From assembly GCA_965242745.1 (NCBI GenBank), contig CBDETG010000034.1, positions 17,090 through 81,089 on the forward strand: a DNA stretch of 64,000 bases. Reading direction: 5' to 3'. The DNA comes from Leptonemataceae bacterium. GTDB lineage: Bacteria > Spirochaetota > Leptospiria > Leptospirales > Leptonemataceae. A program made the translations under genes and the position numbers. This document shows, piece by piece, positions 11,595 to 62,369 of this stretch (position 1 is the stretch's first letter; each line of letters begins with the position of its first letter). The notes beneath the pieces were generated by a model. The model ran no database searches and was not told where the DNA came from. It was given only the letters and a program-made list of their open reading frames with translations.

Positions 11595-12667
11595 CTAAGA
11601 ATTTTGCAAGTCTTGCTCAGCTTGGCTTGCCTCAGGGAAAAAAGCAAAAAGCTGCTCCACTAAACTGTCGAGGCCCTGCCTTTCTTTAGCTGAGATAAAA
11701 AGGACGCGGGGGGGCGGGGAATTAGGCCAAAGCTCCCTTGCCTGAAGTCTGCTTTGTATCTCCTCCTGGAGAGCTTTATCGTAATCTATGAGATCACATT
11801 TGTTAATGGCAAGCAGGCTCTTCTTTTGCAGCAACTCTTTTTTGTAGCTGCGTAATTCTTCCTGCAAAAGCTGCAGCTCTTCTTCAAAGGAAAAACGTTC
11901 TCCATCAAGGAGATAGACGATAGCATGCACGCGTTCCATGTGTTTTAGAAAAGACAGCCCCAAGCCCTGCCCGCAGCTTGCTCCTTTGATAATGCCGGGG
12001 ATATCCGCCAGATATAAGCGGCGATGATCTTCATTACGCACAAGACCTATATTAGGCAGAAGCGTGGTAAAGGGATAAGATGCGATTTTGCCCTTTTTCT
12101 CTGATAAGGCGGCAACTAAGCTTGTTTTCCCTGCGTTTGGCATGCCTGCTAAGCCCACGTCCGCCAGAAGTTTTAGGCGCAAAGTAAGTATCGCTTCCTC
12201 TCCCGGCTCTCCCGGCTGCGCATATTCCGGCTTTTGTCGCGTGGCTGTAGCAAAGTTATGATTCCCCAAACCGCCCTGGCCTCCTTTAGCAGCAAGGCAC
12301 AAGGCGCCAGACTCGTCCAAATCCGCTATATGTTCTTCTATTATGGCATCCGGCTGGTCGTGGGATGCTTTTCTTTTGATGACTTCCGTGCCTAGGGGAA
12401 CGTAGAGCTGCAGTGACTTCCCGTTTTGCCCGCTTTGCTTTCTGGAGCGGCCGTCCTGGCCCTTAGAGGCTTTGTAGCGCTTTTGTCTTAAGAGTTTTGC
12501 CAGAGTGTTTAAAGAAGGGTGGGAACATAAATATACATCCCCCCCCCTGCCCCCGTTGCCTCCATCTGGTCCACCCAAAGGCCTGTATTTTTCTCTGGCA
12601 AAACTTAGGCAACCCTTCCCCCCCTGCCACCATGAATATGGATTTGCACCTCGTCAACAAACTTCAT
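11595..12667 (-). CDS. obg: GTPase Obg/CgtA, reading frame interrupted at a G7 run
   Basis: Tracked ORF 11595-12578 starts inside the Obg fold ([16 protein letters not shown]) and carries G1-G4 motifs (GMPNAGKTS, DIPG, NKCD). The canonical N-terminus MKFVDEVQIHIHGGRGG starts at 12667 in another frame. [20 protein letters not shown] is reached only by a +1 shift at C7 (plus strand 12618-12624). Confidence 0.85.
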
Positions 12668-12731
12668 TGGACACCTGAAGAAAAGAGCCGGCAATAGACG
12701 GGATTAGAACGCAAAGCACAAGGGCTCTCAT

Positions 12732-14303
12732 CTACTCCTTTTGGAGCACGCTCAGCAGTTTTTCAGGGCTCTCGGGATCACTTTTAGCCTCTGTTGCTAT
12801 GTTTTTCAGGGCTGTGATGTCGATGAGCTTTGCATCGAAAGCTGCCAGCGCCATCTCCCAGCCCTGCCCGCATAAAAGAGGCCGGCATACAAGATCGCTT
12901 TTTTCATATAATTCTCTCAAAGATGGCGGGAGGGCAAAGCAAATCAACTCATCCATGTATTTTTGGTCAAAAGGCCTGGCGCTGGCTGCGTTCTGGCCGG
13001 CTGCTTTTTTATCTTTGTCGGCTCCCTTAGCTGCATGGTTGATCCACACAGCAGATACAGGGTTTACAGAGCCATGCAGCCTGCTATTTTCCTGACTTAG
13101 CCGGAATACCTTTGCTGCAGTCTCAGGAGTAATCACTTCTCTGCCAAGAAAGCGCATATCCCGCAGGTAGGCTCTCAGCTCCTTTGCAGACAATATCTTC
13201 TGCACAAAGAACTGGTATAAAGTAAATACAAAAAAGTCACTATCCGTATTATCGCCCACAAGTATCTCCCTTGCTCCAGTCGGCTGCATCAATCGATTTT
13301 GTAAAAGCATTTCCAGCTTATAGCCTACGTTATCAATAAAGGAATAGACATGCGTGCTGACATATTTAGCCATCGCTTCCAAAAAAGAACGCAGATCACC
13401 CTTGAGATACTTAGGGAAGCCGGAGCTCAATTCCCAGAGCTTTCCTCCTATCTTGCTAAAAAAACCTATAAGATCGATATATTTCAGATAGACAGCGTCA
13501 AAGCGCATATTGCTTTGCGCAAAAAAACTAAACATAGTGCGATAAAAGCAATGAGGAGATGCAGAAAGCAGGAAAAAGGCTTTGGCCCCTGTTTCACAAC
13601 GACTCAGCTCTCTATAAAGAGCCGGCATCCCATTGATAAATTGCTTGTCTTTAGGCCGATCCAGGAGCGTAGCTGCAAGGGATAAATATTCACCTATGGG
13701 AGTGCGCACCAAGCTTTGATCCAAATCTGAAATTAACACGTGCCCTTGAAAATCCGCTTCCAGGACGTGGAGTTTCCCATAACCCACGCAAATATTACTC
13801 TGCAAGGTTTGCTTATTTCTTTTACGAAGGTACTGCAAGTCCTTTAGGCTTTGGCGTAAAGAGGCAATTTTTACTAAAGTAATGCGCAATACATAGAAAG
13901 AACTTTGGAGATCCGCATCCAAAGGACAGGAAAAAAACCCATTTGCATCCGTGCGGAATTCAGGTGAACAAAAAAGCGCCTTATAGCTTTGCGCCTTGCT
14001 TTCATCAAAATCCTTCGGCTGAATATCTAAAACCTCTAACTTCAAGATCGCTCCCTGAACAGAAGCAATCATGAGGTCTTCCAAAGGACGTATCCTTTCC
14101 TGAGCAGACAGTGGCAGAGATAAGAAGGGATCCCACTTCTCTTCCAGGTCTAGGTCTTGCGGAGGAATAGGAAAATCCAGCAGCTGGCCGCAGCATTGCA
14201 GGCGTCTGGCTTGGCCGCAGGCGCCTTCCATAAGAACAGCCCGGCGGTACTGCGTGGAGCTGTCCTTGAGAACAGACAACATCCTTAATATAGAAGCGGG
14301 CAA
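12732..14303 (-). CDS. Hypothetical protein, possibly App1/DUF2183-like HAD-type phosphatase
   Basis: VLISDLDQSLV (DxDxx-like) and ILVGDNTDSDFFVF resemble the two App1-family motifs. The assignment is weak. Confidence 0.35.
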   Translation of the reverse strand: MPASILRMLSVLKDSSTQYRRAVLMEGACGQARRLQCCGQLLDFPIPPQDLDLEEKWDPFLSLPLSAQERIRPLEDLMIASVQGAILKLEVLDIQPKDFDESKAQSYKALFCSPEFRTDANGFFSCPLDADLQSSFYVLRITLVKIASLRQSLKDLQYLRKRNKQTLQSNICVGYGKLHVLEADFQGHVLISDLDQSLVRTPIGEYLSLAATLLDRPKDKQFINGMPALYRELSRCETGAKAFFLLSASPHCFYRTMFSFFAQSNMRFDAVYLKYIDLIGFFSKIGGKLWELSSGFPKYLKGDLRSFLEAMAKYVSTHVYSFIDNVGYKLEMLLQNRLMQPTGAREILVGDNTDSDFFVFTLYQFFVQKILSAKELRAYLRDMRFLGREVITPETAAKVFRLSQENSRLHGSVNPVSAVWINHAAKGADKDKKAAGQNAASARPFDQKYMDELICFALPPSLRELYEKSDLVCRPLLCGQGWEMALAAFDAKLIDITALKNIATEAKSDPESPEKLLSVLQKE

Positions 14304-18547: not shown

Positions 18548-19489
18548 TTAGCTTAGCTCCATAAAAGCTGAGGCAGCACAGCCCAAAAGAGCCGCATTGT
18601 TACCAAGGGGGCTTGTAGTGATATCGCAGCCTTGGTGCGCCAGAGGAAGACATTGACGTAAAGCATAAAGGCGCAGAGGGGCAAGTAAAACATCTCCTGC
18701 AGCAGCAATGCCTCCCCCAAGCGCTACGCATTCCAAATCCAGCAAGTTGATGACAGAAGCAATGACGGTACCTAAGGCCTTCGCCGCATCTCTGACTATG
18801 CTTTGACAGAGCAAATCGCCCTGCTTTGCCAGATCGCAAACAAGGCGCGGGGTGTATTCTTCTACTGGATGATCCAATAATGCGCTGGGGAGCTTTCTTT
18901 TCCTTATGCTTTTTGCGCTTCTTATTATGGCAGTAGCTGAAGCATAGGCTTCCAGGCAGCCTCTTTTCCCGCAGGTGCAAGGGGCGCCGTCTGGGATATA
19001 GCTCATGTGACCAATCTCGCCAGCATAGTTGTTTTTACCTCGGAAGAACTTTTTATTTAAGACCAAGCCGCCCCCTATCCCTGTGCCCAAAGTCAGGGCC
19101 ATAAAATTGCTCTTACCTTGTCCCGGTCCAAAGAGATACTCACCCTTTGCAGCGTTATTGGCATCGTTATCAATAAAAACAGGGCATGAGACTATCTTTT
19201 TCAAGAAATCCTTTATAGAGACTCCTTCCAAAGCCTTGATATTATCTATTGCCCTTAATGCGCCGCTTAGAGGATCAGCCCAGCCCGGAGCTCCTAGCCC
19301 TACGCCAACTATGTTTTCGTTATAGACTTTTTGGCAGGCTGCCTGCAGCTTGCTTAAAATGACATCTGCGCTTTCTGAAGCATGCGTAGGGCTTTGCTCA
19401 GACTTGAGAATATGTCCGCTTTCTGAAACCAAGGCGCTCTTGATAAAGGTGCCGCCTAAGTCTATTGCTACTACTGTTTTTTCTGCCAT
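18548..19489 (-). CDS. ROK family sugar kinase (glucokinase-like)
   Basis: VAIDLGGTFIK, GIGGGLV, and ROK zinc motif CTCGKRGCLEAYAS. Confidence 0.9.
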   Translation of the reverse strand: MAEKTVVAIDLGGTFIKSALVSESGHILKSEQSPTHASESADVILSKLQAACQKVYNENIVGVGLGAPGWADPLSGALRAIDNIKALEGVSIKDFLKKIVSCPVFIDNDANNAAKGEYLFGPGQGKSNFMALTLGTGIGGGLVLNKKFFRGKNNYAGEIGHMSYIPDGAPCTCGKRGCLEAYASATAIIRSAKSIRKRKLPSALLDHPVEEYTPRLVCDLAKQGDLLCQSIVRDAAKALGTVIASVINLLDLECVALGGGIAAAGDVLLAPLRLYALRQCLPLAHQGCDITTSPLGNNAALLGCAASAFMELS

Positions 19490-19925
19490 AATGCCAGCCG
19501 TCCTTTACTAAGCGCCAGCCCCTCCATTGTGCCTACAGAGCGCTCTAAAAACACATCTATCATCGGAGCTTCGCATCCTTCGTGCGCAGGCATCTTATAT
19601 CTTAGGATAAGCCCTACAGCTGTCAAGGATAAAGTAAATACCACTTCTAAATCATAATATGCCTGCGTATTTTTGCGCAGCAAAAGCGCAAAAAAACAAG
19701 ACACAGTAATGCTCCCGCCTGCTTTTGCGCATTTGAAAGCTTTACAAAGGCAATATGACGACGAGCTGCTTTGCCAAGCGCATATAAAAGCGGAAGTTTG
19801 CTAAAAGAGACGCTAGGCGGGAGAGCTTTTAGCTAGACAGAACAAAGCGCTTCTATAGTGTGAGCTTTGATCCTGCAAGTTAGGCTTCCTTTGCTTAGAG
19901 TCATAACAATTACTTTTGTCTGCCA

Positions 19926-21884
19926 ATGCCCCCTGTAATAAAAGAAAAACAAAGAGCAGCGCTCAGGCCTAGGAAAGGCCATGCAGTAGATGCTATGCAG
20001 CAGAATGGCCATGCATCGCAGAACTTCATTAGGGACAAACATGCGGGCTTAGATAAAAACTCGCAGCAGAATGGCCATGCAGCGCAGAACTTCATTAGAG
20101 ACAAACATGCGGGCTTAGATAAAAACTCGCAGCAGAATGGCTCTGCAGCGCAGAACTTCATTAGAGACAAACATGCGGGCTTAGATAAAAACTCGCAGCA
20201 GAATGGTCTTGCAGCGCAGAACTTCATTAGAGACAAACATGCGGGCTTAGATAAAAACTCGCAGCAGAATGGCTCTGCAGCGCAGAACTTCATTAGGGAC
20301 AAACATGCGGGCTTAGATAAAAACTCGCAGCAGAATGGCTCTGCAGCGCAGAACTTCATTAGGGACAAACATGCGGGCTTAGATAAAAGCTCGCAGCAGA
20401 ATGGCTCTGCAGCGCAGAACTTCATTAGAGACAAACATGCGGACTTAGATAAAAACTCGCAGCAGAATGGCTCTGCAGCGCAGAACTTCATTAGGGACAA
20501 ACATGCGGGCTTAGATAAAAACTCGCAGCAGAATGGCTCTGCAGCGCAGAACTTCATTAGGGACAAACATGCGGGCTTAGATAAAAACTCGCAGCAGAAT
20601 GGCTCTGCAGCGCAGAACTTCATTAGGGACAAACATGCGGGCTTAGATAAAAACTCGCAGCAGAATGGCTCTGCAGCGCAGAACTTCATTAGGGACAAAC
20701 ATGCGGGCTTAGATAAAAACTCGCAGCAGAATGGCTCTGCAGCGCAGAACTTCATTAGGGACAAACATGCGGGCTTAGATAAAAACTCGCAGCAGAATGG
20801 TCTTGCAGCGCAGAACTTCATTAGGGACAAACATGCGGGCTTAGATAAAAACTCGCAGCAGAATGGCTCTGCAGCGCAGAACTTCATTAGAGACAAACAT
20901 GCGGGCTTAGATAAAAACTCGCAGCAGAATGGCTCTGCAGCGCAGAACTTCATTAGGGACAAACATGCGGGCTTAGATAAAAACTCGCAGCAGAATGGTC
21001 TTGCAGCGCAGAACTTCATTAGGGACAAAGAAAAACAAAGAACAGCGCTAAGACCTGAAGAATGCCACGAGGAATATAATTATTTGAAGCTTTTGAAGCA
21101 GATTTTAAGTACGGGAGAGGAGCGCAAAGATCGTACAGGCATAGGGACTCTTAGTATTTTTGGGGCCTGCCTGCATTTTTCTTTAGACTCGTATTTCCCC
21201 CTTCTGACTACCAAGGAGCTGCATTTCAAGTCGATCGCATATGAGCTTTTATGGTTCTTGAAAGGAGAAAGCAATGTCCGCTACCTGCAGGACAAGGGGG
21301 TGCGTATATGGGATGAGTGGGCTGATGAAGACGGCGAGCTGGGGCCTGTTTATGGGGCGCAGTGGCGCAAATGGAGTACAAATGATGGCGCAAGTATAGA
21401 TCAGATTTCTGAGCTTATTGCATCGCTTCGCAATACTCCATTTAGTAGAAGGCATATATTAAGCGCTTGGAATGTCGGCGAGTTGGCGAAAATGAAACTT
21501 CCTCCCTGCCATATCCTTGCGCAATTTTATGTGAGCAATGACAAAGGACTCTCCTGCCAATTCTATCAAAGAAGCGTCGACAGCTTTTTGGGCTTGCCCT
21601 TCAATATCGCATCTTATGCTCTTTTGACTTATATACTAGCGAATGTATGTGGTCTTTGGCCTAAGAGGCTGAGCTTCGTGGGGGGTGATGTGCATTTGTA
21701 CAAAAATCATCTCAGGCAGGCCGAAATACAGCTGCAGCGCAGGCCTTATCCATTTCCAAGACTGCGCTTGAAAAAAAACTATAGCAGCAAAAAAGCAGAC
21801 TGCATAAGCAGGATCGCTTACGAAGATTTTGCGCTGGAAGACTACCGCCATCATGATAAAATACGCGCGCCCATAGCCGTTTAG
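19926..21884 (+). CDS. thyA: Thymidylate synthase (ThyA) with ~370-aa N-terminal extension made of 22-aa tandem repeats
   Basis: The C-terminal ~275 aa align by eye to E. coli ThyA (DRTGIGTLSIFG, IWDEWADEDGELGPVYG.QWR, PPCH, QRSVDSFLGLPFNIASYALL, APIAV end). There is no in-frame ATG between the repeat and the core. The only in-frame ATG start is at 19926, upstream of the repeat. Confidence 0.85.
   Translation: MPPVIKEKQRAALRPRKGHAVDAMQQNGHASQNFIRDKHAGLDKNSQQNGHAAQNFIRDKHAGLDKNSQQNGSAAQNFIRDKHAGLDKNSQQNGLAAQNFIRDKHAGLDKNSQQNGSAAQNFIRDKHAGLDKNSQQNGSAAQNFIRDKHAGLDKSSQQNGSAAQNFIRDKHADLDKNSQQNGSAAQNFIRDKHAGLDKNSQQNGSAAQNFIRDKHAGLDKNSQQNGSAAQNFIRDKHAGLDKNSQQNGSAAQNFIRDKHAGLDKNSQQNGSAAQNFIRDKHAGLDKNSQQNGLAAQNFIRDKHAGLDKNSQQNGSAAQNFIRDKHAGLDKNSQQNGSAAQNFIRDKHAGLDKNSQQNGLAAQNFIRDKEKQRTALRPEECHEEYNYLKLLKQILSTGEERKDRTGIGTLSIFGACLHFSLDSYFPLLTTKELHFKSIAYELLWFLKGESNVRYLQDKGVRIWDEWADEDGELGPVYGAQWRKWSTNDGASIDQISELIASLRNTPFSRRHILSAWNVGELAKMKLPPCHILAQFYVSNDKGLSCQFYQRSVDSFLGLPFNIASYALLTYILANVCGLWPKRLSFVGGDVHLYKNHLRQAEIQLQRRPYPFPRLRLKKNYSSKKADCISRIAYEDFALEDYRHHDKIRAPIAV
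19998..21027 (+). repeat. Tandem repeat, period 66 bp, ~15.6 copies, in frame with thyA
   Basis: The unit ATGCGGGCTTAGATAAAAACTCGCAGCAGAATGGCTCTGCAGCGCAGAACTTCATTAGGGACAAAC repeats with only a few point variants (GGCTCT/GGTCTT/GGCCAT, AGAGAC/AGGGAC). Confidence 0.95.
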
Positions 21885-22012: not shown

Positions 22013-25000
22013 ATGAGTAATACTTTAGAAGAGTTAGCAAAGGGCAAGCCTATTACGGCCCCTGCAGAGGTGCAGGAGTTGGTAGAAAGGTTTCATTCCA
22101 ATGAAGATGGAGCAAGAAAGTATAACGAAACGCAGCTGCGGCTTGAGTATGTCAATCCGCTTTTTGCATGCTTGGGCTGGGATGTGGCCAATAAGGCGGG
22201 GCGCTCCCCCTTGTATAGGGATGTCCAGCACGAATATTCTATGAGAACGCCTGAGGGGATTAGGGCTCCTGACTATTGCTTTCAGATAGGCGGGGTGCAC
22301 AAGTTTTTTCTGGAAACAAAAAAGCCGTCCATCAATATAAAAAGCGATATAGGGCCCGCCTTTCAAGTGAGGCGCTATGGCTGGACAGAGCAATTACCTT
22401 TGTGCATACTTACTGACTTTGAAGAGTTTGCCATATACGATTGTCGTTTTGAGCCTAAGGCGAAAGATCGCGCTGATTTTGCCAGGGCTCAGTATTACAC
22501 TTATGAACATTATTTGACCAAATGGCATGAGATAGCGGGTCTTTTTTCTAAGACAGCCGTACAGGAAGGCTCTTTTGATAGTTTTATTGATAAGAAGAAA
22601 AAAGGTACTTTAGAGGTCAATCGCGCCTTGATTAGAGACATGGAGGGCTGGCGTGATTTGCTGGCTAAGAACATTGCGCGGAATAATAAAAATCTCAGCG
22701 TATCACAGCTGAATTATCTGGTGCAGCTTACGATCGACCGCATTATCTTTTTGCGTATTTGCGAGGATCGCGATATAGAAGAATACGGCCAAATGCAGAA
22801 GCTGCTAAAAAAAGAGCAGGTCTATAAGGGCTTGTGCGGCATCTTTAGGCAAGCCGATGAAAAATACAATTCGGGCTTGTTTCACTTTCAAGACGAAAAG
22901 GGGCGGGGGGCGCATGATAGTGTGAGTCTTGGATTGGCTATTGGCGACAAGCCGCTTAAGGAAATTATCCGCCATCTATATTATCCTAAAAGCTCCTATG
23001 TTTTTTCTAAAATCCCCGCTGATATACTGGGGCAGGTCTACGAGCAATTTTTAGGCAAGGTGATACGCCTGACTCCTGCGCATCAGGCTAAGGTCGAGTA
23101 CAAGCCAGAAGTGCGCAAGGCGGGCGGCGTTTATTATACGCCTACTTATATAGTAGAATATATTGTGAAACATACGGTAGGCGCGCTGCTAAAAAACAAG
23201 ACGCCTGCGCAGGCAAAAAAGCTGCGCGTGCTGGACCCTGCCTGCGGCTCTGGCACCTTTTTGCTGGGCGCATATCAGTATTTACTGCAATGGTATCGCG
23301 ACTGCTACGCCAAAGACGCTGCCAAACATAAAAAGCTGCTTTACAAGGACGGGGCAGACGAGTGGCAGCTCAGCACGCAGGAAAAAAAGGAGATCCTGCT
23401 TAGCAACATTTACGGCGTGGACATTGACAGGCAGGCCGTAGAAGTCACGAAGCTCTCGCTGCTCTTGAAAGTCTTGGAGGGCGAGCACAGTGATAGGCTG
23501 GATCATCAAAGGAGGATCTTTCACGAGCGCGCCCTGCCTGATCTCAGTAATAATATCAAGTGCGGGAATTCGCTGATAGGAACTGACTTTTTTTACGGCA
23601 AGAACTTAGACATGTTCGCGCGCGATGAGATGGAAAAGATTAACGCCTTTGACTGGGACGATGAGGCGCGCGGCTTTGGGAAAATTATGCGTGAGGGCGG
23701 CTTTGATGCGGTGATCGGGAATCCGCCATATGCGCGCCTTCAATCATTACAAGAAAGTCAACCTTACGCTATAGAGACCTATAGAAAAAATTATACAGCT
23801 GCTTCAGAAGGCAATTTTGATATTTATGTGCTATTTACTGAAAAAGGATATAAGCTGCTAAACAAAACAGGAGCTTTAGGCTTTATCCAGCCGCATAAGT
23901 TTATGCAGTCGGATTTTGGCATTGGCTTACGAAATTATTTGAGCGAAAAGAAAGCATTACAAAAAATTGTGCATTTTGGCTCCGAGCAAGTTTTTAATGC
24001 AGCGACAACATATACTTGTTTGATATTTTTAAGTAAAGCAAGGCAGGCGAATTTTGATTTTACGCCTGTGGAAAATCTTATTCCAGATAAGCTGCAGGAA
24101 GTAAAAACATATAAGCTAAAGCAGCCTTTGATTGGCAATAAATGGCATTTTACGAGCCCGCAGAAAGAAAAGGTGATGCAAAAATTACATGCTCAACCTC
24201 TAAGGCTTGGTGATATAGTTAGGAAAATATTTGTTGGCTTGCAAACCAGTGCAGACTCAATTTATGTGCTTAAGGCGCTAAAATGGGACAAAAACCTACT
24301 TACTTGTTATTCTAAATCTTTAGAGAAAGAAATTAGAATTGAAGCAGGCTTGGTGAAACCTTTTTTGATGGGAAAAGACGTAAAACGTTATACAGAAGCT
24401 CGCCCTTTAAACGTCGTAATTTTCCCCTATGAAGTTCGAAAGGGAGGCGCTAATTTGATGTCAGCGCAATATATCAAAAAAAATTTCCCTAGAGGCTGGG
24501 AATACCTTTTAGAGAATAAAAAGGGGTTGGAGGGAAGAGAAAACAGACGTTTTGAAAAAACATGGTGGCAATTTAGCCGTCCTCAAAACTTAAATGAATT
24601 TGCAACGGCTAAAATAATGGCACCAGAAATTGCTTCTTCACCTCAAATGACTTTTGATACAAATGGAAGTATGTATCATACAACCAAAGTATATAGTTTC
24701 TCTTTTCAAGAAAAGCACAACAGTAAATACTACTTAGGTTTATTAAATTCTAATATCTTATGGTTTTTCTTAACTGCTACTGGATATGTTTTGCGAGGCG
24801 GTTTTTATACTTTCAAAACGGAATATCTAAAGCCCTTCCCCATCCCAAAACTCGACCTCACCAACCCCGCCCAAAAAGCCCAGCACGATCGCATGGTGCA
24901 GCTCGTCGATCAGATGCTCGCCGCACAGAAGCAGCTGCATACATCAAAAAACGATAGCGACCGCAGGCATTATCAGCAGAAGGTAGATATACTGGACAGG

Positions 25001-25075
25001 CAGATAGATGCGCTGGTGTATGCGTTGTACGAATTGACCCCGGAGGAGATAGGGATCGTGGAGGGGAGAGGATAA
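22013..25075 (+). CDS. Type IIG restriction-modification fusion enzyme (PD-(D/E)xK nuclease + gamma-class N6-adenine MTase + C-terminal specificity region), paralog 1
   Basis: N-terminal HsdR-N/Mrr-like block (APDYCFQIGGVHKFFLETKKP). SAM motif VLDPACGSGTFLL. Catalytic GFDAVIGNPPY. Long divergent C-terminal region. 1020 aa with AGAGAGG upstream of the ATG. Confidence 0.85.
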   Translation: MSNTLEELAKGKPITAPAEVQELVERFHSNEDGARKYNETQLRLEYVNPLFACLGWDVANKAGRSPLYRDVQHEYSMRTPEGIRAPDYCFQIGGVHKFFLETKKPSINIKSDIGPAFQVRRYGWTEQLPLCILTDFEEFAIYDCRFEPKAKDRADFARAQYYTYEHYLTKWHEIAGLFSKTAVQEGSFDSFIDKKKKGTLEVNRALIRDMEGWRDLLAKNIARNNKNLSVSQLNYLVQLTIDRIIFLRICEDRDIEEYGQMQKLLKKEQVYKGLCGIFRQADEKYNSGLFHFQDEKGRGAHDSVSLGLAIGDKPLKEIIRHLYYPKSSYVFSKIPADILGQVYEQFLGKVIRLTPAHQAKVEYKPEVRKAGGVYYTPTYIVEYIVKHTVGALLKNKTPAQAKKLRVLDPACGSGTFLLGAYQYLLQWYRDCYAKDAAKHKKLLYKDGADEWQLSTQEKKEILLSNIYGVDIDRQAVEVTKLSLLLKVLEGEHSDRLDHQRRIFHERALPDLSNNIKCGNSLIGTDFFYGKNLDMFARDEMEKINAFDWDDEARGFGKIMREGGFDAVIGNPPYARLQSLQESQPYAIETYRKNYTAASEGNFDIYVLFTEKGYKLLNKTGALGFIQPHKFMQSDFGIGLRNYLSEKKALQKIVHFGSEQVFNAATTYTCLIFLSKARQANFDFTPVENLIPDKLQEVKTYKLKQPLIGNKWHFTSPQKEKVMQKLHAQPLRLGDIVRKIFVGLQTSADSIYVLKALKWDKNLLTCYSKSLEKEIRIEAGLVKPFLMGKDVKRYTEARPLNVVIFPYEVRKGGANLMSAQYIKKNFPRGWEYLLENKKGLEGRENRRFEKTWWQFSRPQNLNEFATAKIMAPEIASSPQMTFDTNGSMYHTTKVYSFSFQEKHNSKYYLGLLNSNILWFFLTATGYVLRGGFYTFKTEYLKPFPIPKLDLTNPAQKAQHDRMVQLVDQMLAAQKQLHTSKNDSDRRHYQQKVDILDRQIDALVYALYELTPEEIGIVEGRG

Positions 25076-25882: not shown

Positions 25883-26602
25883 ATGACCCAATCCGCCATT
25901 GAATGGACGCAGATGACGTGGAACCCCACGACAGGCTGCACCAAAATATCTACGGGCTGTAAGTATTGCTATGCTGAGGTGATGAGCAGCCGCTTGCAAG
26001 CGATGGGCCTTAGAAAATACCGAGATGGCTTTACTAAAATTCGCACGCATAAAGAGGCTCTAAGCATTCCTTACCTTTGGCATAAGCCAAGAGTGATTTT
26101 TGTAAACTCAATGAGCGACCTGTTTCATCCCGAAGTGCCCGATAGCTTCATAAAAAAAGTCTTCCAAGTTATGAACGAAAACCAGCGGCACACCTTTCAA
26201 GTTTTGACAAAGCGTGCACAACGCTTGTTAGAGCTCGATCATCAGTTGCATTGGAGCAGTAATATATGGATGGGAGTATCTGTTGAAAACAAAGCTGCCA
26301 TGCATCGCATTTCTTCTCTTATCAAGACGGGCGCAAAAATGAAGTTCCTCTCTTGCGAGCCCTTGCTGGAATCACTTCCAAGATTGCCGCTGGGGAACAT
26401 TGATTGGGTTATCGTTGGCGGCGAGAGTGGACAAAAGTCAAGAGAGATGGAACAGGCCTGGGCTGTGAATATCCAAAAGCAATGTAGTAAAAATAATGTT
26501 GCTTTTTTCTTTAAGCAGTGGGGTGGAAAAAATAAAAAGAAAAACGGCCGTATTCTAAACGGCAAAACTTACGACGAAATGCCCTCAGCCCACCTCAAGT
26601 AG
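25883..26602 (+). CDS. Phage Gp37/Gp68 family (DUF5131) protein
   Basis: Signature N-terminus IEWTQMTWNPTTGCTKISTGCKYCYA, and WVIVGGESG. Confidence 0.8.
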   Translation: MTQSAIEWTQMTWNPTTGCTKISTGCKYCYAEVMSSRLQAMGLRKYRDGFTKIRTHKEALSIPYLWHKPRVIFVNSMSDLFHPEVPDSFIKKVFQVMNENQRHTFQVLTKRAQRLLELDHQLHWSSNIWMGVSVENKAAMHRISSLIKTGAKMKFLSCEPLLESLPRLPLGNIDWVIVGGESGQKSREMEQAWAVNIQKQCSKNNVAFFFKQWGGKNKKKNGRILNGKTYDEMPSAHLK

Positions 26603-26700: not shown

Positions 26701-26975
26701 GCTTTGATAACGGCGGGCGGGGATGTGTAAATGCAGCGTCAGGAGTGCAAAAAATATGTTGCGCTGTGAGATTAAGCGGCTACGTTCGCAGCGAAGGGGT
26801 GTACTGGGACGCTGTAGGATTGGCAGCGGGCGTTGGTGGTAAAATGCGGAGTCTGGCGTTGTTGTAATATGCAGAGTCTGGGCGCCGCATTATGTCGCGT
26901 TGGGCGCAGACGTTTTTTATGACAACAACGCTGCCATCTTCCCACGCCGCATTGGCGCAGGCTACGTTGCATACG
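26700..26975 (+). repeat. GC-rich dispersed repeat element, copy 3
   Basis: CAAAAAATATGTTGCGCTGTGAGATTAAGCGGCTACGTTCGCAG and GTACTGGGACGCTGTAGGATTGGCAGCGGGCGTTGGTGGTAAAATGCGGAGTCTGGCGTTGTTGTAATATGCAGAGTCTGGGCG are identical to 28300-28475. Confidence 0.9.
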
Positions 26976-27009: not shown

Positions 27010-27780
27010 ATGGATCAGACCTTTGCAATAAAAATCAGTGGTGAGGGGCTTAGTCCTGAAGAGGTCAGTATTGGAGACCTAGGCAAACTCTTAAGCTCTT
27101 TTGACAAAAGCATAAAATCATTGATTCCAAAAGAAGAGCCCGAGATGGCGAAAGATATAGTTATTGGATTAATTGGTATTGGAACAGGCAGCGCGAAACT
27201 TACATTTAAGACTAAGCTGCCTGTGGTGATGCTTGCATGGTCTTCATTAACTGCAGTAATAAGGGAAAATAATTTTCATACATTACCACCTGAATCCATA
27301 AAACCCTTAAAGGAGATTGCAGATTTATCAAAAAAAAAGCGATGTGCAGTGGAGTTTCATAATACGAATGGAGCAATTTCACCTGCAATCATTCACCCTG
27401 ATACAACTATAGAAATTCCATCTGAGAAGTATATTGAAGTAAGTACAACTATTTATGGCAAAGTGGAAAGAGTAGGCGGCAAAAAGGAGCCTAAAGCGCT
27501 TCTTTCATTACCAAAAACAGGATCACTTTCTTGTGATGTATCTGAGGAAATGGCAAAAAAATTAGCTCAGAGATTATACACATGGGTAGGAGTAGCAGGG
27601 CAGGCAAAATGGAATATCGATGATGACTCTATTGCAGCTTTTCAAATCGAGTCATTGACTTCTTATGAAGATACTCCTCTTTCTGATGCAATACAAGAAC
27701 TAGCAAAAATTACTGGAGAACTCTGGAAGGACGAAGAGGACGTAATTAAAGCTGTAGCAAAACTTAGAGGTAAAATATAA
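27010..27780 (+). CDS. Hypothetical protein (256 aa), upstream partner of the PIN gene
   Basis: The ATG is preceded by GGAGGGGAG. Its stop TAA abuts the ATG of the next gene. I recognise no domain. Confidence 0.7.
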   Translation: MDQTFAIKISGEGLSPEEVSIGDLGKLLSSFDKSIKSLIPKEEPEMAKDIVIGLIGIGTGSAKLTFKTKLPVVMLAWSSLTAVIRENNFHTLPPESIKPLKEIADLSKKKRCAVEFHNTNGAISPAIIHPDTTIEIPSEKYIEVSTTIYGKVERVGGKKEPKALLSLPKTGSLSCDVSEEMAKKLAQRLYTWVGVAGQAKWNIDDDSIAAFQIESLTSYEDTPLSDAIQELAKITGELWKDEEDVIKAVAKLRGKI

Positions 27781-28295: not shown

Positions 28296-28680
28296 AAGCC
28301 CGCGCAAAAAATATGTTGCGCTGTGAGATTAAGCGGCTACGTTCGCAGTGAAAATACAGCGTCGGCCTTGTTGTAATAAGCGGCGTTTGTGTACTGGGAC
28401 GCTGTAGGATTGGCAGCGGGCGTTGGTGGTAAAATGCGGAGTCTGGCGTTGTTGTAATATGCAGAGTCTGGGCGTTGTTGCGTAACACAAAAGCGAGAAT
28501 CGGCGATTCCACGCAGGCACCACAGCGCTTATCAGCTATTTTGCGAATTACACAACAAGGCCCCCAGTTAGCAAAACTAGCGCTGCCTACTCCCAACGTC
28601 GCTTATAGCTACACCGCCCTCGTCATCAAAACTACCGCCCACTCCCAGCGCCATATTTGTACAACAACGCGACACTGAAT
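28296..28680 (+). repeat. GC-rich dispersed repeat element, copy 4 (forward units followed by inverted units)
   Basis: The first ~180 nt equal copy 3 apart from a ~37-nt insertion. The distal half carries reverse-oriented units (ATTACACAACAAGGCC, TTTGTACAACAACGCG) like the copy at 47225-47470. Confidence 0.9.
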
Positions 28681-30608: not shown

Positions 30609-30809
30609 ATTTCTAAGCTTTCGCGCTGAGCAGATAAAGATAGCTTTCGTACTATGGTTTAGGATGCCAAGCATTATTCTGTCCTGCAGGGTAAAAAGCA
30701 TGCCTCTAGTACATAGACAAGGCGCACTGGAAGCCTAAAAAAGCTCTATTTCATCAAGTGAGCGCATTTCTGTTTGACAGCGCTTAAGGCAAAACCAAGC
30801 TGTTTTCTT

Positions 30810-33614
30810 ATGTCTGCGCCCGCCGAAGTCCAGCGTCTTGTAGAAAATTTTGATGCGCACATCGACTCCTACAAAGCAGGGTCCTATAACGAGACGCAGC
30901 TGCGCGTGGATTTCGTTGATCCACTTTTTAGCTGCATGGGCTGGGACATCAATAATCAAGCGGGCTTTGCTGAAAGTTACCGCGACGTGCTGCACGAATA
31001 TACGCTTAAGACCAAAGACGGCACGAAGGCGCCCGACTATTGCTTTTGTATTGGCGGCGCCCGCAAATTCTTTTTAGAGACGAAAAAGCCCGCCGTGCAT
31101 ATCAAAGATGACGCTGCGCCCGCCTTTCAACTGCGGCGTTACGGCTGGTCGGCGAGTCTGCCCTTGAGCATCCTCACGGACTTTGAGGAATTTGCCGTCT
31201 ATGATTGCCGCATCAAGCCGCAGCAAAAGGACCGCGCCTCTGTCGCTCGGCTTATGTATTTTACTTACAAGGATTATTTAGACGAGTGGGAGGAGCTGGC
31301 GGGGCTTTTTTCTAAGAGAGCGATTCAACAAGGCGCTTTTGATACGTTTGTCAGCTCGGATAAAAAAAAGAAAGGCGCAAGCGAGATTGACAAGTCCTTT
31401 TTAGCGGACATGGAGAGGTGGCGCGAGCTGCTTGCTAAAAACATTGCGCTGCGCAACGCAAAGCTGAGTCAAAAAGAGATGAACCATTACGTGCAGGCGA
31501 CGATGGATCGCATCATCTTTTTGCGCATCTGCGAGGATCGTAATATAGAAGAATACGGCCGGCTGCAGGAGCTGCTAAAAAAAGAGCGCGTCTATAAGGG
31601 CTTGTGCCGCCTCTTTAGGCAGGCTGACGCAAAATACAATTCGGGCTTGTTTTGCTTTGAGGACGAAAGGGGGCGGGGGGCGCCTGATAGGGTGAGTCTT
31701 AGATTGGCTGTTGACGACAAGCCGCTGCAAGAAATTATCCGCCATCTGTATTATCCCCAAAGCCCCTACGTGTTTTCGCAGATTCCAGCAGAGATCTTAG
31801 GGCAGGTTTATGAAAAGTTTTTAGGCAAGGTGATACGTCTGACTCCTGCGCATCAGGCCAAAGTAGAAGAGAAGCCCGAAGTGCGCAAGGCAGGCGGCGT
31901 TTATTATACGCCCAAATACGTAGTCGATTACATCGTAAAAAATACGGTGGGCGCGCTGCTCAAAAACAAGACGCCCGCGCAGGCAAAAAAGCTGCGTGTG
32001 CTGGACCCTGCCTGCGGCTCTGGCTCCTTTTTGCTTGGCGCTTATCAGTTTCTTCTGCGCTGGTATCTGCAAAGTTATAGCAAGGAGCCTGCCAAAAATA
32101 CAAAGCGCATCTATCAAGACGACAAGGGCCGGTGGTCTTTGGCGACGAGGGAAAAAAAGGAGATCCTGCTTAGCAACATTTACGGCGTGGACATTGACAG
32201 GCAGGCCGTAGAGGTCACAAAGCTCTCGCTGCTCTTGCAGGTGCTGGAGGGTGAAAACAGCGATACGCTGGATGCGGAGCGCCGCCTCTTTGCCGAGCGC
32301 GCCCTGCCTGATCTGCGTCATAATATCAAGTGCGGGAATTCGCTGATCGGGACTGACTTTTTTTACGGCAAGAACTTAGATATCTTCGAGCAGAATGAGA
32401 TGGAAAAGATTAACGCCTTTGACTGGGACGATGAGGCGCGAGGCTTTGGGGAGATCATGCGTGAGGGCGGTTTTGATGCGGTGATTGGGAATCCGCCTTA
32501 TGGGGCGGAAATTACAGCAGTCCAAAGGAAGTATATTGATAATAGATTAGATTACTCTTCAGGAACAAAAAACTCTGCAATTTATTTTATTAGTCTTGCA
32601 AAACAATTACTAAGTCCTAATGGAATTTTATCGTTTATTATTCCTAAGTCGGTATGTTATTCAAATGGTTGGAAGGAATGCGCATTGATGTTGATAAAAA
32701 GGCTGGTGAAGTTAATTGATGTAGAAAAAGCATTTCAAGGCGTAAAGCTAGAGCAGATCATATTTCTATGCGACCAGAATAACAAAAAGGATTCTTATAC
32801 AAATGGTCTCGTGATAAATGGAGAAATAAAGCAACAGTCAATCGTTAAAAAATCAGTGTTTTCCAAATATAATATATTGCTTGCGGGACAAGTAAAAAGT
32901 GAAATTGATATTATAAACAAGATTACAACAAATTTTTCAAAAATGCTTTCTGATTATGTGTTTATTGAACGTGGTTTGAATTGGCAGAGCCAAGTTAAAG
33001 AAAAGCGAGGTCAAACTCCTGTATTTAGGGGCGCTCAACTTAACCGCTATGCGCTAGATGACGCTACAGATTTCATTTCTTTGAAAAAATTTTCTAAAGG
33101 AGAGTATGAATACCAACTGAAACCAAAACTCTTGAATCAATTAGTCATTGCTCATGTGAAAAACCCTTATCCTCATTTTTATCTACAAGGCTTTTTAGAT
33201 TTTGAGAATAGGATTGTTTTTGAAACAATATCATGTATCTTTCCTCAAGATAAGGCGAAAGTAAATTTATATTTTTTACTAGGGTTGAATAACTCAAAAT
33301 TATTCGCATGGTTACTGTATAAATTTGTATTTTCTAACGCTATACGTAGTATTCGCTTTGATAACCTCTATGTGAAAAAGATACCTGTACCCGACCTTAA
33401 TGAGATAAACCAATCTGGTATAGCAAAACTTGCAACTCAGATACTCGCCGCACAAAAAAAACTGCATACATCAAAATCCGATAGCGACCGCAGGCATTAT
33501 CAGCAGAAGGCGGATATACTTGATAGACAGATAGATGCGCTGGTCTATGAATTGTATGAACTAAGGCCGGAGGAAATCAGGATTGTGGAGGGGAGGGGAT
33601 GCGAGGAGAGATAG
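30810..33614 (+). CDS. Type IIG restriction-modification fusion enzyme, paralog 2 (different C-terminal specificity region)
   Basis: Same architecture and motifs as 22013-25075 (APDYCFCIGGARKFFLETKKP, VLDPACGSGSFLL, GFDAVIGNPPY). The sequence after NPPY is unrelated until the shared last ~50 aa. Confidence 0.85.
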   Translation: MSAPAEVQRLVENFDAHIDSYKAGSYNETQLRVDFVDPLFSCMGWDINNQAGFAESYRDVLHEYTLKTKDGTKAPDYCFCIGGARKFFLETKKPAVHIKDDAAPAFQLRRYGWSASLPLSILTDFEEFAVYDCRIKPQQKDRASVARLMYFTYKDYLDEWEELAGLFSKRAIQQGAFDTFVSSDKKKKGASEIDKSFLADMERWRELLAKNIALRNAKLSQKEMNHYVQATMDRIIFLRICEDRNIEEYGRLQELLKKERVYKGLCRLFRQADAKYNSGLFCFEDERGRGAPDRVSLRLAVDDKPLQEIIRHLYYPQSPYVFSQIPAEILGQVYEKFLGKVIRLTPAHQAKVEEKPEVRKAGGVYYTPKYVVDYIVKNTVGALLKNKTPAQAKKLRVLDPACGSGSFLLGAYQFLLRWYLQSYSKEPAKNTKRIYQDDKGRWSLATREKKEILLSNIYGVDIDRQAVEVTKLSLLLQVLEGENSDTLDAERRLFAERALPDLRHNIKCGNSLIGTDFFYGKNLDIFEQNEMEKINAFDWDDEARGFGEIMREGGFDAVIGNPPYGAEITAVQRKYIDNRLDYSSGTKNSAIYFISLAKQLLSPNGILSFIIPKSVCYSNGWKECALMLIKRLVKLIDVEKAFQGVKLEQIIFLCDQNNKKDSYTNGLVINGEIKQQSIVKKSVFSKYNILLAGQVKSEIDIINKITTNFSKMLSDYVFIERGLNWQSQVKEKRGQTPVFRGAQLNRYALDDATDFISLKKFSKGEYEYQLKPKLLNQLVIAHVKNPYPHFYLQGFLDFENRIVFETISCIFPQDKAKVNLYFLLGLNNSKLFAWLLYKFVFSNAIRSIRFDNLYVKKIPVPDLNEINQSGIAKLATQILAAQKKLHTSKSDSDRRHYQQKADILDRQIDALVYELYELRPEEIRIVEGRGCEER

Positions 33615-33670
33615 CGTTTTTAGAAAGAGATGGTTTATAGAAAAGTACAAATCAATCAGAACAGATTGCT
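33516..33670 (+). repeat. 155-bp direct repeat, copy A (3' end of RM paralog 2 + first 41 nt of the ImmA-like gene)
   Basis: Aligns to 35346-35500 at a constant offset of 1830 bp with about 6-7 mismatches. Confidence 0.95.
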
Positions 33671-34778
33671 TTATCTGTTGAAACTATTCTCTTACAAGAA
33701 AGAGAAGCTTTTAGAACACGTCAATTCTCACTATAAACGCCCAAAAGAATTTAAAGATTTATTCAATGATGAAATTGATATTGGGGTACTAAAAAAAATA
33801 GATGCTCTCTTTCAACAGGGGCTGAGCTATTATACAGACCCTACTGATATAGAACCTAGCGGCAAGAATAGTATATTTTTTAGAAAGCGGCGCTTCAATA
33901 CTACATTAGTTTTTGGTGATTATTTGCGCGTGAATGCTATAGAGCGAGAAGCGCAGCATCTCAATGCGCTTGTAAAATTATGCAATTACCCCATTGGAAA
34001 TATCCCATTTAACGATAGCCTTGACAGCTCTCCAGACCTAGCTGCTAAAAAGGCTATAGCGGAGTTTTACCCAGAACAAGGGATTAAGGACGACAGAGAT
34101 TTCTTAAAGGCTTTCATACATAAATTGTCAGAAAAGAACATTGTAGTATTTGAATATGTGGAAACTTGGAACCAAAACTATAAGAGTAGTTTGGACGGCC
34201 TCTTTATTAAGCCCAATATCATTGCCATTAAGAGACAACAAGATAGTCTTAAAAGAGAAATTTTTACCCTGGCTCATGAGCTTGGACATTGCATACTAAG
34301 CCAAGAAGAAATTGATCAGCCGGTTATAGAACAGCGTTTAGAAAACGAAACTGAAAAATGGTGCAATGATTTCGCTTTTGCTTTTTTAATAGGGCCGGAA
34401 AAAAAGAGACTTTTACTGCAAAGATCCGATTTTAGTTTGCAGTCTTCCTATATTCGGCAAATCACTCAGGAACAACATTTAAGCCGTTTAGCTATTTTTA
34501 CATTTCTTTGGATTCATCAAAAAATTTCATGGGTGGCATACCAGAACATTAAGAAGCAACTCAAGCAAGAGTACGAAAGTCGTCAAAAGAAAAAAGAAGA
34601 ACAAAAAATACGAAATAAAGAGTCAGGAATAAAGCAAAGAGGCGGCCCCCCTAAGCCTATTCATTCAAAACTCGCAGAAGATATTTATCGCAGCGCGTTT
34701 TTAAACAATGTAGTTAAGGAATACGAAGTATTGATGCGCTTTGGCAAAAAAGATATAGATAACTTTATTTATGGATAA
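33630..34778 (+). CDS. ImmA/IrrE-like (COG2856) zinc metallopeptidase domain protein
   Basis: HExxH motif in FTLAHELGHCIL. 382 aa. Starts 15 nt after the RM paralog 2 stop. Confidence 0.65.
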   Translation: MVYRKVQINQNRLLYLLKLFSYKKEKLLEHVNSHYKRPKEFKDLFNDEIDIGVLKKIDALFQQGLSYYTDPTDIEPSGKNSIFFRKRRFNTTLVFGDYLRVNAIEREAQHLNALVKLCNYPIGNIPFNDSLDSSPDLAAKKAIAEFYPEQGIKDDRDFLKAFIHKLSEKNIVVFEYVETWNQNYKSSLDGLFIKPNIIAIKRQQDSLKREIFTLAHELGHCILSQEEIDQPVIEQRLENETEKWCNDFAFAFLIGPEKKRLLLQRSDFSLQSSYIRQITQEQHLSRLAIFTFLWIHQKISWVAYQNIKKQLKQEYESRQKKKEEQKIRNKESGIKQRGGPPKPIHSKLAEDIYRSAFLNNVVKEYEVLMRFGKKDIDNFIYG

Positions 34779-47224: not shown

Positions 47225-47470
47225 CGCAAGCGCTAATCCCATAAGCTTCCCGCATACCAGCGCCCAGACTCCGCATTTTCACAACAAGGCCGGCTGTTTT
47301 TACCTGTATTATGTCGCGTTGCGCCCAAAACGCCGCATATTAGCAACACCGCCGCCGTTAGCACAAACAACGCTGCTTGTTACAACAACGCCAGACGCCG
47401 CCTACTACAACCCCGCCCGCAGTCAGCAAAACCAACGCTATATTATTACAACAACGCCTGCGACATAAGT
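47225..47470 (-). repeat. GC-rich dispersed repeat element, copy 5 (inverted orientation)
   Basis: CGCCCAGACTCCGCAT...ACAACAA units. The 3' part is the reverse complement of 2490-2560. Confidence 0.85.
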
Positions 47471-49576: not shown

Positions 49577-50323
49577 TTATCTTGTTTTTTGCTTGCTTTG
49601 CTTTTGTATGCTTTGTATAAGCAAGTCAAGCTTTGAGTCTATCTTATCTATGCGTGAGTCTATCTTGTCCATGCGTGAGCCTGTGTCGCTGTGCAGGTAA
49701 AGCATAACAGAGATCATAACAGTAAGGATAGTAGGCATGCCTATTCCCACAATCCATTTTAGCCAGTCAAGGCCAGACTCCACTTTCACAAGCCGGCTTT
49801 CTATATGCAGGAAGCCCTTGTCTACTTTGCGCTCTAAGCCATCGATTCTGCTTGTCTGCGCGTCTACTTTGCGCTCTAAGCCATCGATTCTGCCTGTCTG
49901 CGTGTCTACTTTGCCCTCCAGCTTATCTACTTTGCGCTCTAAGCCATCGATTCTGCTTGTCTGCGCGTCTACTTTGCGCTCTAAGCCATCGATTCTGCTT
50001 GTCTGCGCGTCTACTTTGCGCTCTAAGCCATCGATTCTGCTTGTCTGCGCGTCTACTTTGCGCTCTAAGCCATCGATTCTGCTTGTCTGCGCGTCTACTT
50101 TGCCCTCTAAGCCATCGATTCTGCTTGTCTGCGTGTCTACTTTGCCCTCCAGCTTATCTACTTTGCGCTCTACGCTTGCCAGCTTTTCGCTGCCTGCTTG
50201 ACTCCGTATATACTCTAAGAAAAAGCCAAAGCCCGACGGCGCTTCCTTTTCTGTAAAGCCCTCCTTGCGCTGCCTGCCTGCCTTAGCGCGGGCAGGTGTC
50301 TTTGCTTGTGTCTGTGTTGCCAT
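49577..50323 (-). CDS. Bdr/DUF1640-like coiled-coil membrane protein with 14-aa repeats
   Basis: GFGFFLEYIRSQ, about 7 copies of RIDGLERKVDAQTS, a single TM (IVGIGMPTILTVMISVMLYL), then HSDTGSRMDKIDSRIDKIDSKLDLLIQSIQKQ. Confidence 0.75.
   Translation of the reverse strand: MATQTQAKTPARAKAGRQRKEGFTEKEAPSGFGFFLEYIRSQAGSEKLASVERKVDKLEGKVDTQTSRIDGLEGKVDAQTSRIDGLERKVDAQTSRIDGLERKVDAQTSRIDGLERKVDAQTSRIDGLERKVDKLEGKVDTQTGRIDGLERKVDAQTSRIDGLERKVDKGFLHIESRLVKVESGLDWLKWIVGIGMPTILTVMISVMLYLHSDTGSRMDKIDSRIDKIDSKLDLLIQSIQKQSKQKTR
49821..50175 (-). repeat. Coding tandem repeat, period 42 bp
   Basis: CTACTTTGCGCTCTAAGCCATCGATTCTGCTTGTCTGCGCGT is repeated nearly perfectly, with 21-nt variant half-units near both ends. 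Confidence 0.9.
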
Positions 50324-50357
50324 AATAATAATACCCCTGTCTGTCACAGCAGGCAGT

Positions 50358-61925: not shown

Positions 61926-62369
61926 ATGAGAACATCAGCATCTGCAAAAACTAGGACGCAAGGTCCCACAGAAAAGGAAGCGCCTGGCTTTTTCTTAGAG
62001 TATTTACATAAAGACCTGCTTTCTAAGCTGGACGGCGTAGACCGTAAAATAGACAACTTAGATGGCAAAGTAGACAAGAAAATAGATAACTTAGATAGCA
62101 AAGCAGACAAGAAAATAGATAACTTAGCAGGCAGAGTAGAAAGCAGGATAGAGAAGCAGACAAGGCTTATGCTCTGGATTATGGGAGCTGGCTTTACGGG
62201 CTTGCTTGGTCTCATGACTTACTTACACAGCGACACAAAGCAAGATATACAGAGACTAGACTCCCGTATAGACAAGCTGGAGTCTGGCATAAGCGAAAAT
62301 AGAAAACTGCTTATCCAGCTTATACAAACACAAGCCAAGACAGGTGAAGGCAACACAAGCCGGAGGTAG
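61926..62369 (+). CDS. Bdr/DUF1640-like coiled-coil membrane protein (KID 11-aa repeats)
   Basis: GFFLEYLHKD, VDRKIDNLDGKVDKKIDNLDSKADKKIDNLAGRVE, TM segment LWIMGAGFTGLLGLMTYL, and HSDTKQDIQRLDSRIDKLES. Confidence 0.75.
   Translation: MRTSASAKTRTQGPTEKEAPGFFLEYLHKDLLSKLDGVDRKIDNLDGKVDKKIDNLDSKADKKIDNLAGRVESRIEKQTRLMLWIMGAGFTGLLGLMTYLHSDTKQDIQRLDSRIDKLESGISENRKLLIQLIQTQAKTGEGNTSRR

Follow-up and report, generated by a model that had tools for sequence, protein, structure and literature searches.

Where does translation of a thymidylate synthase (TS) begin when the 5′ end of its gene is filled by a tandem repeat? The question is raised by thyA in a stretch of 64,000 nt (hereafter the window, to which all coordinates refer) from contig CBDETG010000034.1 of a Leptonemataceae metagenome-assembled genome (MAG; GCA_965242745.1). 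The array and the ThyA core share one uninterrupted open reading frame (ORF), and ThyA is probably translated from upstream of the array. The product would carry a basic, Gln/Asn-rich tail of 383 residues that is predicted to be disordered and would have grown by slippage or unequal recombination. This is a single locus in one MAG, and the feature is real and unusual.

A 66-bp array in frame with thyA

The encompassing ORF is preceded by an in-frame stop that ends at 19898 and is closed by the stop codon at 21882-21884 (Table 1). Tandem Repeats Finder reported a sole array at the locus (19997-21029), with a period of 66, 15.7 copies, 97% matches and a score of 1934. The peptide QNFIRD occurred 16 times in the thyA frame at exact 66-nt steps, with zero indels. 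The original prediction, made from the letters alone, had described about 15.6 copies of a 66-bp unit in the 5′ end of thyA and in its frame, and both points were confirmed. The array has the structure that defines an in-frame coding minisatellite, i.e. near-identical units placed head to tail, a unit length that is a multiple of 3 and an open frame. Peptides such as HAGLDK and NSQQNGSAAQNFIR are encoded by the repeat, and the repeat DNA is confined to the array within the window.

Table 1. Features of the thyA locus, with their coordinates in the window
Feature	Coordinates	Strand	Basis or remark
Repeat extension and ThyA, complete ORF, 652 codons and stop	19926..21884	+	ORF list; Pfam PF00303 at residues 385-652
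MPPVI, with the first possible start ATG	19926..19940	+	no Shine-Dalgarno-like sequence upstream
Flank copy A, KEKQRAALRP	19941..19970	+	flank comparison
Degenerate unit U0, RKGHAVDAMQQNGHASQNFIRD, holding the in-frame ATG 19995	19971..20036	+	43/66 identity to consensus
15 full 66-bp units, KHAGLDKNSQQNG(S/H/L)AAQNFIRD	20037..21026	+	unit alignment
Flank copy A′, KEKQRTALRP	21027..21056	+	27/30 identity to A
EECHEE, aligned with the canonical ThyA N-terminus of homologues	21057..21074	+	homologue alignment; out-of-frame ATG 21062-21064, GAGGA 21069-21073
TTG for Leu387 (equivalent to E. coli Leu5), sole conceivable start after the array	21084..21086	+	comparison of homologue loci
ThyA catalytic core, Tyr384-Val652	21075..21881	+	Pfam, alignment, PDB match
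436-bp intergenic region common to thyA and the divergent ROK-family kinase gene	19490..19925	.	ORF list and Pfam

The consensus was matched exactly by six units, four of them consecutive (20481-20744), and the unit variants (AGG/AGA; GGCTCT/GGTCTT/GGCCAT; AAC/AGC; GGC/GAC) were ordered along the array. Inner units were 97-100% identical, against 65% for the edge unit U0 and 90% for the flanks. A homogenised interior with diverged edges looks like the usual signature of slippage or unequal recombination. The three differences between the flanks consist of two synonymous changes and one Ala/Thr exchange. The 23-mer common to both flanks, AAAGAAAAACAAAGARCAGCGCT, was found twice in the 64 kb, with 0 occurrences expected (100 shuffles). 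The duplication of about 30 bp that had been proposed to bracket the array is therefore real; its second copy lies one base further upstream than proposed, at 21027-21056 and not at 21028-21057. A longer duplication was considered and set aside: the next 30 nt were 13/30 identical (P ~0.03), which was taken as a hint only and not used.

The thyA frame and one antisense frame are the two of the six frames that stay open across the repeat unit, so the thyA frame is the sole open one of the three + frames. An unselected insert was roughly estimated to give an unbroken ATG-array-ThyA ORF in about 2% of cases (multiple of 3 × open phase × open 5′ flank). Among in-frame stretches of 22 codons in the genes of the window, the unit ranked at percentile 42 by codon usage, and it stood above 97.5% of open shuffles. 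Such usage is compatible with coding and is no proof of it. The antisense ORF (19910-21028, 372 aa) was rejected as a gene, being Cys-rich and hydrophobic and having a codon score below those of genes.

The core that follows the array is a complete ThyA. Residues 385-652 matched Pfam PF00303 over profile positions 2-266 of 266, with 365 bits (cut-off 24.3) and an E-value of 2e-109. A PDB search returned E. coli TS as the closest solved structure (residues 3-264, E 6e-94). In an alignment of 41 sequences, made of the window ThyA and 40 homologues, all 59 invariant columns (59/59) were satisfied by the window ThyA. Residues in these columns include Arg403, Cys528-His529, Arg508-Arg509, Arg549, Asp552, Asn560, His590 and Tyr592. 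The catalytic Cys528-His529 (PCH motif), the arginines that bind dUMP and phosphate, and the active-site Asp, Asn, His and Tyr are thus present. The core, 269 residues long, contains no stop and no frameshift, and its AlphaFold2 confidence (predicted local distance difference test, pLDDT) was mostly >90. Judged by this core, the gene appears to be a bona fide ThyA gene with a non-canonical N-terminus and not a decayed one. It is predicted, as part of the reading held probable above, to encode a functional TS. A bifunctional dihydrofolate reductase (DHFR)-TS was rejected, no DHFR domain (PF00186) being detected by Pfam.

The start was then examined by position. The equivalent of Arg21 was located in 76 diverse thyA loci from reference genomes, and the nearest usable start was found 20-26 codons before it in 73 of the 76; the other three distances were 31, 50 and 82. 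In the window, the nearest upstream in-frame starts lie 379 and 402 codons before this residue, outside the canonical range of 20-26. This distance concerns the architecture of the protein and not its membership of the enzyme family. The original prediction had taken ATG 19926 for the only ATG; a second in-frame ATG is present at 19995 (Met24), and both lie upstream of the perfect units. Its statement that the interval from the array to the core lacks an in-frame ATG was correct, and GTG is likewise missing there. More generally, no in-frame ATG, GTG or TTG occurs between 19995 and 21084. The TTG at 21084, suggested earlier as an alternative start, does exist and is a poor candidate, since it is the conserved Leu5 codon and a start there would remove the near-invariant Tyr4. 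At the position of Tyr4, 75 of the 76 loci encode Tyr and one encodes Phe, and the Tyr386 column is at least 90% conserved in the 41-sequence alignment. The Leu5 codon is TTG in 10 of the 76 homologues, each of which has its own upstream start. As there is no start between the array and TTG 21084, a full N-terminal helix with the Tyr4 equivalent needs translation through the array. This positional argument is the strongest one for such translation.

Two actinobacterial loci were observed beside this comparison. The thyA genes of a Thermoleophilia MAG (L040) and of Cellulomonas persica (L044) have no ATG, GTG or TTG nearer than 82 and 50 codons, respectively, to the Arg21 equivalent. An N-terminal extension of 30-60 residues, not built of repeats, may therefore be obligatory in some ThyA of actinobacteria.

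Alternatives to translation through the array

Several observations weigh against a start upstream of the array. ATG 19926 is not preceded by a Shine-Dalgarno-like sequence (anti-Shine-Dalgarno duplex energy 0), and several to many other genes in the window are likewise without one. A promoter scan located no convincing promoter near this ATG; the thyA promoter must sit in 19490-19925, where none was identified with confidence. In a stricter codon control, 20% of the open off-frame or antisense gene windows scored as high as the repeat unit (P = 0.20). Protein searches found no relative carrying the tail. The window ThyA product was absent from the public protein collection in five start variants; six products from near thyA (ROK, restriction-modification, glyoxalase, DUF192, DUF5131 and a truncated Obg) are in that collection, each as a singleton cluster and all from one contig of 99,847 bp. 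In the same assembly, the gene of the obg GTPase is frameshifted at a G7 run (12618-12624, within 12480-12740 on the minus strand), one frame reading MKFVDEVQIHIHGGRGG and then a stop while another frame continues. The truncated Obg ORF of 327 aa is the version in the public collection. This frameshift is probably a homopolymer indel error of long-read assembly, and single-base indel errors therefore occur in the assembly. Lastly, if one base fewer is read in the CC at 21065-66, the out-of-frame ATG 21062 opens a canonical start (MHEEYNYL...) 23 codons before the Arg.

The last observations lead to an explanation by two genes. An orphan repeat protein (MPPVI...KEKQRTALRPEEC...) would end inside thyA at TGA 21085-21087, thyA would start at ATG 21062, and a spurious base near 21065-66 would be an assembly error. 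The distance of 23 codons falls within the range of 20-26 seen in 73 of the 76 homologues, and ThyA of a Leptospirales relative (L001) starts 24 codons before the Arg, with MISEELQYL.... The essential obg of the same assembly is frameshifted at G7, and the contig of a close relative by SecY (P0123) bears a long-read-style name. However, an error at a CC, GG or AA dinucleotide and not in a long homopolymer is required, and dozens of runs of at least 7 bases in the window stand inside ORFs that are still open. An off-frame ATG is estimated to occur by chance in a span of 7 codons with a frequency of about 10-25%, and this one has no Shine-Dalgarno-like sequence before it either. Moreover, indel errors tend to break ORFs, not to join them. 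The explanation by two genes was judged unlikely on this balance. Were the same extra base a real mutation of recent date, the two genes would be truly fused and the explanation would merge with translation through the array; if it were an assembly error, the locus would be an example of a single indel creating a spurious fusion. A start after the array is about as improbable. Here the array would have been inserted in the 5′ end, a working ThyA of 266 aa would be made from TTG 21084 by way of GAGGA 21069-21073, and the upstream frame would be a leader or give a minor fusion. The TTG is in frame, and the GAGGA 10 nt upstream gives an anti-Shine-Dalgarno duplex of -5.9 kcal/mol, an energy comparable to those of the ROK-kinase (18548-19489) and restriction-modification (22013-25075) genes (both -7.5 kcal/mol), whereas ATG 19926 has no such ribosome-binding site. 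Against this, GAGGA is Glu-Glu coding sequence and the TTG is simply the conserved Leu5 codon, used as TTG by homologues with upstream starts of their own. The product would miss Tyr386 and be shorter than all 76 homologues, none of which (0/76) needs a start nearer than 20 codons to the Arg. No promoter-like site was found on the + strand within or after the array.

It is very improbable that the array is real and that thyA, cut off from its start, is decaying, with an unstable or inactive fusion and with thyX or thymidine salvage used by the organism. In the window, thyA is followed by a type IIG restriction-modification (R-M) gene and not by folA, which follows thyA in the loci L001 and L088. 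The gene adjoins a variable region that holds two R-M genes of type IIG, and no ThyA above about 60% identity was found among the matches listed, against SecY relatives at 85-90%. Decay is contradicted by the core, free of stops and frameshifts over 269 residues, with 59/59 invariant positions and a Pfam score of 365 bits, and by the 1.1-kb upstream frame, which is still open and includes the diverged edge unit. No greater weight was given to an assembly artefact, i.e. a collapsed or inflated repeat that would account for the array or its copy number. Assemblies are known to go wrong at tandem repeats (PMC6868369), and four consecutive units are identical. Yet the ordered and distinct unit variants, the degenerate edge unit and the diverged flanks have the look of a real array, and the spacing is exactly 66 nt throughout. 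Such an artefact would alter the copy number and not the existence of an in-frame tail.

The tail and its comparison with known systems

Under translation through the array, the start would be ATG 19926, or possibly ATG 19995. The product would be a protein of ~73 kDa, made of the 383-residue N-terminal tail and a normal ThyA core of ~31 kDa. The tail would read, in order, MPPVI, KEKQRAALRP, a degenerate 22-aa unit, 15 near-identical 22-aa units, KEKQRTALRP and EECHEE. A long disordered repeat extension had been proposed earlier; it is present and its disorder is predicted by AlphaFold2, and its length is 383 aa before the ThyA core and not ~350. This extension has a pI of 9.9, a net charge of about +18, a grand average of hydropathy of -1.31 and 25% Gln+Asn. 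Residues 1-336 had an AlphaFold2 pLDDT of <50, and a helix was modelled with more confidence only from about residue 352, continuing into ThyA helix A. With its low pLDDT and its hydrophilic, low-complexity composition, the tail is predicted to be intrinsically disordered.

The repeat is an orphan. No tail homologue was found at E<=0.01 in a word-indexed search of 5.8 billion proteins. A full HMMER scan of 1.84 billion representative proteins gave 88 matches to the tail, mostly at 16-37% identity. Five were inspected and were unrelated repeat proteins of fitting period, with units such as TDDFSGSYNDLTDLPANLDTDA and KTEESELKKSVEKEKVAAENIV. HMMER scores of the tail are inflated because a repeat is aligned on a repeat, and the matches were rejected as homologues. 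Pfam DUF5770 and DUF4606 were rejected in the tail as sub-threshold and repetition-driven matches in which no single stretch passes. The repeat DNA was not found in JGI metagenome contigs, plasmids or phages. No Rfam family was found in the region, and an RNA element was rejected, since the folding of three units did not surpass that of shuffles (z -1.5). Spacers are missing, and the array is therefore not CRISPR-like. Repeat tails were also absent from the N-termini of other housekeeping proteins inspected in the window (AspRS, PyrG, YjeF, PriA, GlpK-like kinase and ProB). In the literature searched, no report of a repeat-extended bacterial ThyA was found.

The tail may have originated from a short native N-terminal extension that was duplicated, giving the 30-bp flanks; the ancestral N-terminus proposed earlier was MPPVIKEKQRAALRPEEC..., with the array between the duplicated copies. 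A 66-bp segment would then have been amplified via replication slippage or unequal recombination. As 66 is divisible by 3, no change in copy number would disturb the frame. The array may be unstable, its near-perfect units having been taken earlier as a sign of ongoing expansion and contraction. The homogeneous inner units, with U0 and the flanks more diverged, suggest that the array has been in frame for a certain time. The TS fold would tolerate so large an addition at its N-terminus, as in DHFR-TS and human TS. The tail would mainly be a tolerated passenger that at most modulates the abundance, solubility or turnover of ThyA, and no new catalytic function would be expected from it.

Large N-terminal partners of TS are known from the DHFR-TS of protozoa and plants. 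The PDB matches included DHFR-TS chains (1qzf, 1j3i, 3jsu), in which TS has an N-terminal partner of 220-320 residues. As in the window, a TS core is joined to a large N-terminal polypeptide; these proteins are still active dimers, and the TS N-terminus therefore tolerates big additions. The DHFR partner is a folded, conserved enzyme with substrate channelling, whereas the tail described here is orphan, repetitive and predicted to be disordered. Human TS has a disordered N-terminal segment of ~25-30 residues that is reported to govern turnover, and it begins ~20 residues before the bacterial core in the PDB alignments. Both proteins would have an unstructured extension ahead of the conserved helix A, but the one in human TS is eukaryotic, short and free of repeats. 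To our knowledge, its role in degradation is proteasome-dependent and the host bacterium is without a proteasome.

A tandem repeat at the 5′ end of a TS gene is also known. The 5′ untranslated region of human TYMS contains a 28-bp variable-number tandem repeat with a 2R/3R polymorphism. Either repeat could tune expression. The TYMS repeat is untranslated, has 2-3 copies, seldom more, and exerts its effect on transcription or translation, whereas 16 units lie inside the ORF here; the likeness is one of analogy, not homology. In-frame coding repeats of variable number are found in bacteria in staphylococcal and streptococcal surface proteins, Ehrlichia TRPs and variable lipoproteins of mycoplasmas. 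Like the array, these have units that are a multiple of three, a homogenised interior, degenerate edges and hydrophilic low-complexity peptides, and slippage or unequal recombination is expected in them. Unlike ThyA, a cytosolic enzyme of nucleotide metabolism, their host proteins are almost always secreted or surface proteins under diversifying pressure. A prion-like Q/N-rich domain was also considered. Such domains, for example that of Clostridium botulinum Rho, are Q/N-rich with few charged residues. The tail, with 25% Q+N and ~23% K+R+D, is too charged by composition (no dedicated predictor was run), and this class was rejected. A repeat tail joined to a core metabolic enzyme of bacteria is found in none of the systems compared.

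The translated array might act as a tuning device, in which slippage varies the number of 22-aa units and this number sets the abundance, solubility or self-association of an essential enzyme producing dTMP. This role was considered very unlikely. If true, it would produce heritable and reversible differences in thymidylate from cell to cell, with a bearing on antifolate tolerance, thymineless stress and phage replication, and, as a contingency-type coding repeat in a core enzyme of nucleotide metabolism, the array would be the first to be described. If the fusion itself is real, a conserved, essential and cytosolic enzyme can bear a fast-evolving orphan repeat tail of 380 residues, and the known range of coding minisatellites extends beyond surface proteins. 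The locus would also provide a natural case for studying how the dosage of an enzyme in bacteria, and its turnover, respond to a disordered tail. Gene callers guided by homology may cut such a gene short or label it a pseudogene, and short-read assemblies would break there. Such features are therefore probably under-reported, and long-read metagenomes should show more of them.

Host, neighbouring genes and other repeats

The SecY protein of the window was 85-90% identical to those of several uncultured genomes, 75-79% to those of MAGs labelled Leptospirales or Leptospiraceae, 70% to that of Leptonema illini and 61% to that of Leptospira. By this comparison, the host is placed as an uncultured member of the Leptospirales. 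The best ThyA relatives, which include the Leptospirales MAG L001, were ~60% identical, with none above ~62% among the matches listed. In one ThyA from a 1.9-kb ENA contig (P0001, 384 aa), ~120 residues were duplicated internally (LRGDTN...PFNIA twice). This duplication is probably a misassembly, and it inflated the score of the protein in the ThyA search.

A ROK-family kinase gene (18548-19489, minus strand) is divergent from thyA. A scan of metagenomes with this neighbour gave matches of at most 43% identity. In the SecY relative P0123, the locus was not syntenic and thyA lay beyond the 10-kb flank. Downstream of thyA, two paralogous type IIG R-M genes (22013-25075 and 30774-33614) encode an Eco57I/MmeI-like methylase with a TaqI_C specificity domain. 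Genes of a phage-type DUF5131 protein (25883-26602) and of an M78 peptidase (33630-34778) are located near them, and G+C falls to 0.35-0.37 at 23750-24750. The region around aspS looks like a variable defence region.

Other coding arrays in the window belong to a GLUG-repeat protein and to two uncharacterised ORFs, one coiled-coil-looking and one lipoprotein-like. The array at 49820-50149 (ORF 49577-50347, minus strand) consists of 42-nt units encoding RIDGLERKVDAQTS in the coiled-coil-like protein. The array at 52949-53296 (ORF 51992-53737, minus strand) has 78-nt units, which encode 26 aa each, and the N-terminus of the protein that contains it is lipoprotein-like. These two arrays show that coding minisatellites are tolerated by the genome, there in host proteins of the usual kind. 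All but two of the repeat families in the window have a period divisible by 3; the exceptions have periods of 25 nt, and of 65 nt at 47330-47458. The short array of 25-nt period (GGGCGTTGGTGGTAAAATGCAGAGTCT-like) is present in two copies, at 26828-26884 and 28418-28480, on either side of an ORF without Pfam family (27010-27780), and these copies could be the boundary of an inserted segment. Two tandem paralogous genes (61926-62369 and ~62430-62862) each contain an array of 33-nt units (KIDNLDGKVDK) that is 95 nt long and identical in both, the two arrays being 502 nt apart; the pair is a recent gene duplication. Positions 1-2388 encode part of a large surface-type protein with Asp-rich repeats resembling thrombospondin type 3 (108-nt period) and GLUG motifs (96-nt period), and a GLUG protein of 2490 aa is encoded near secY in a related contig (L089).

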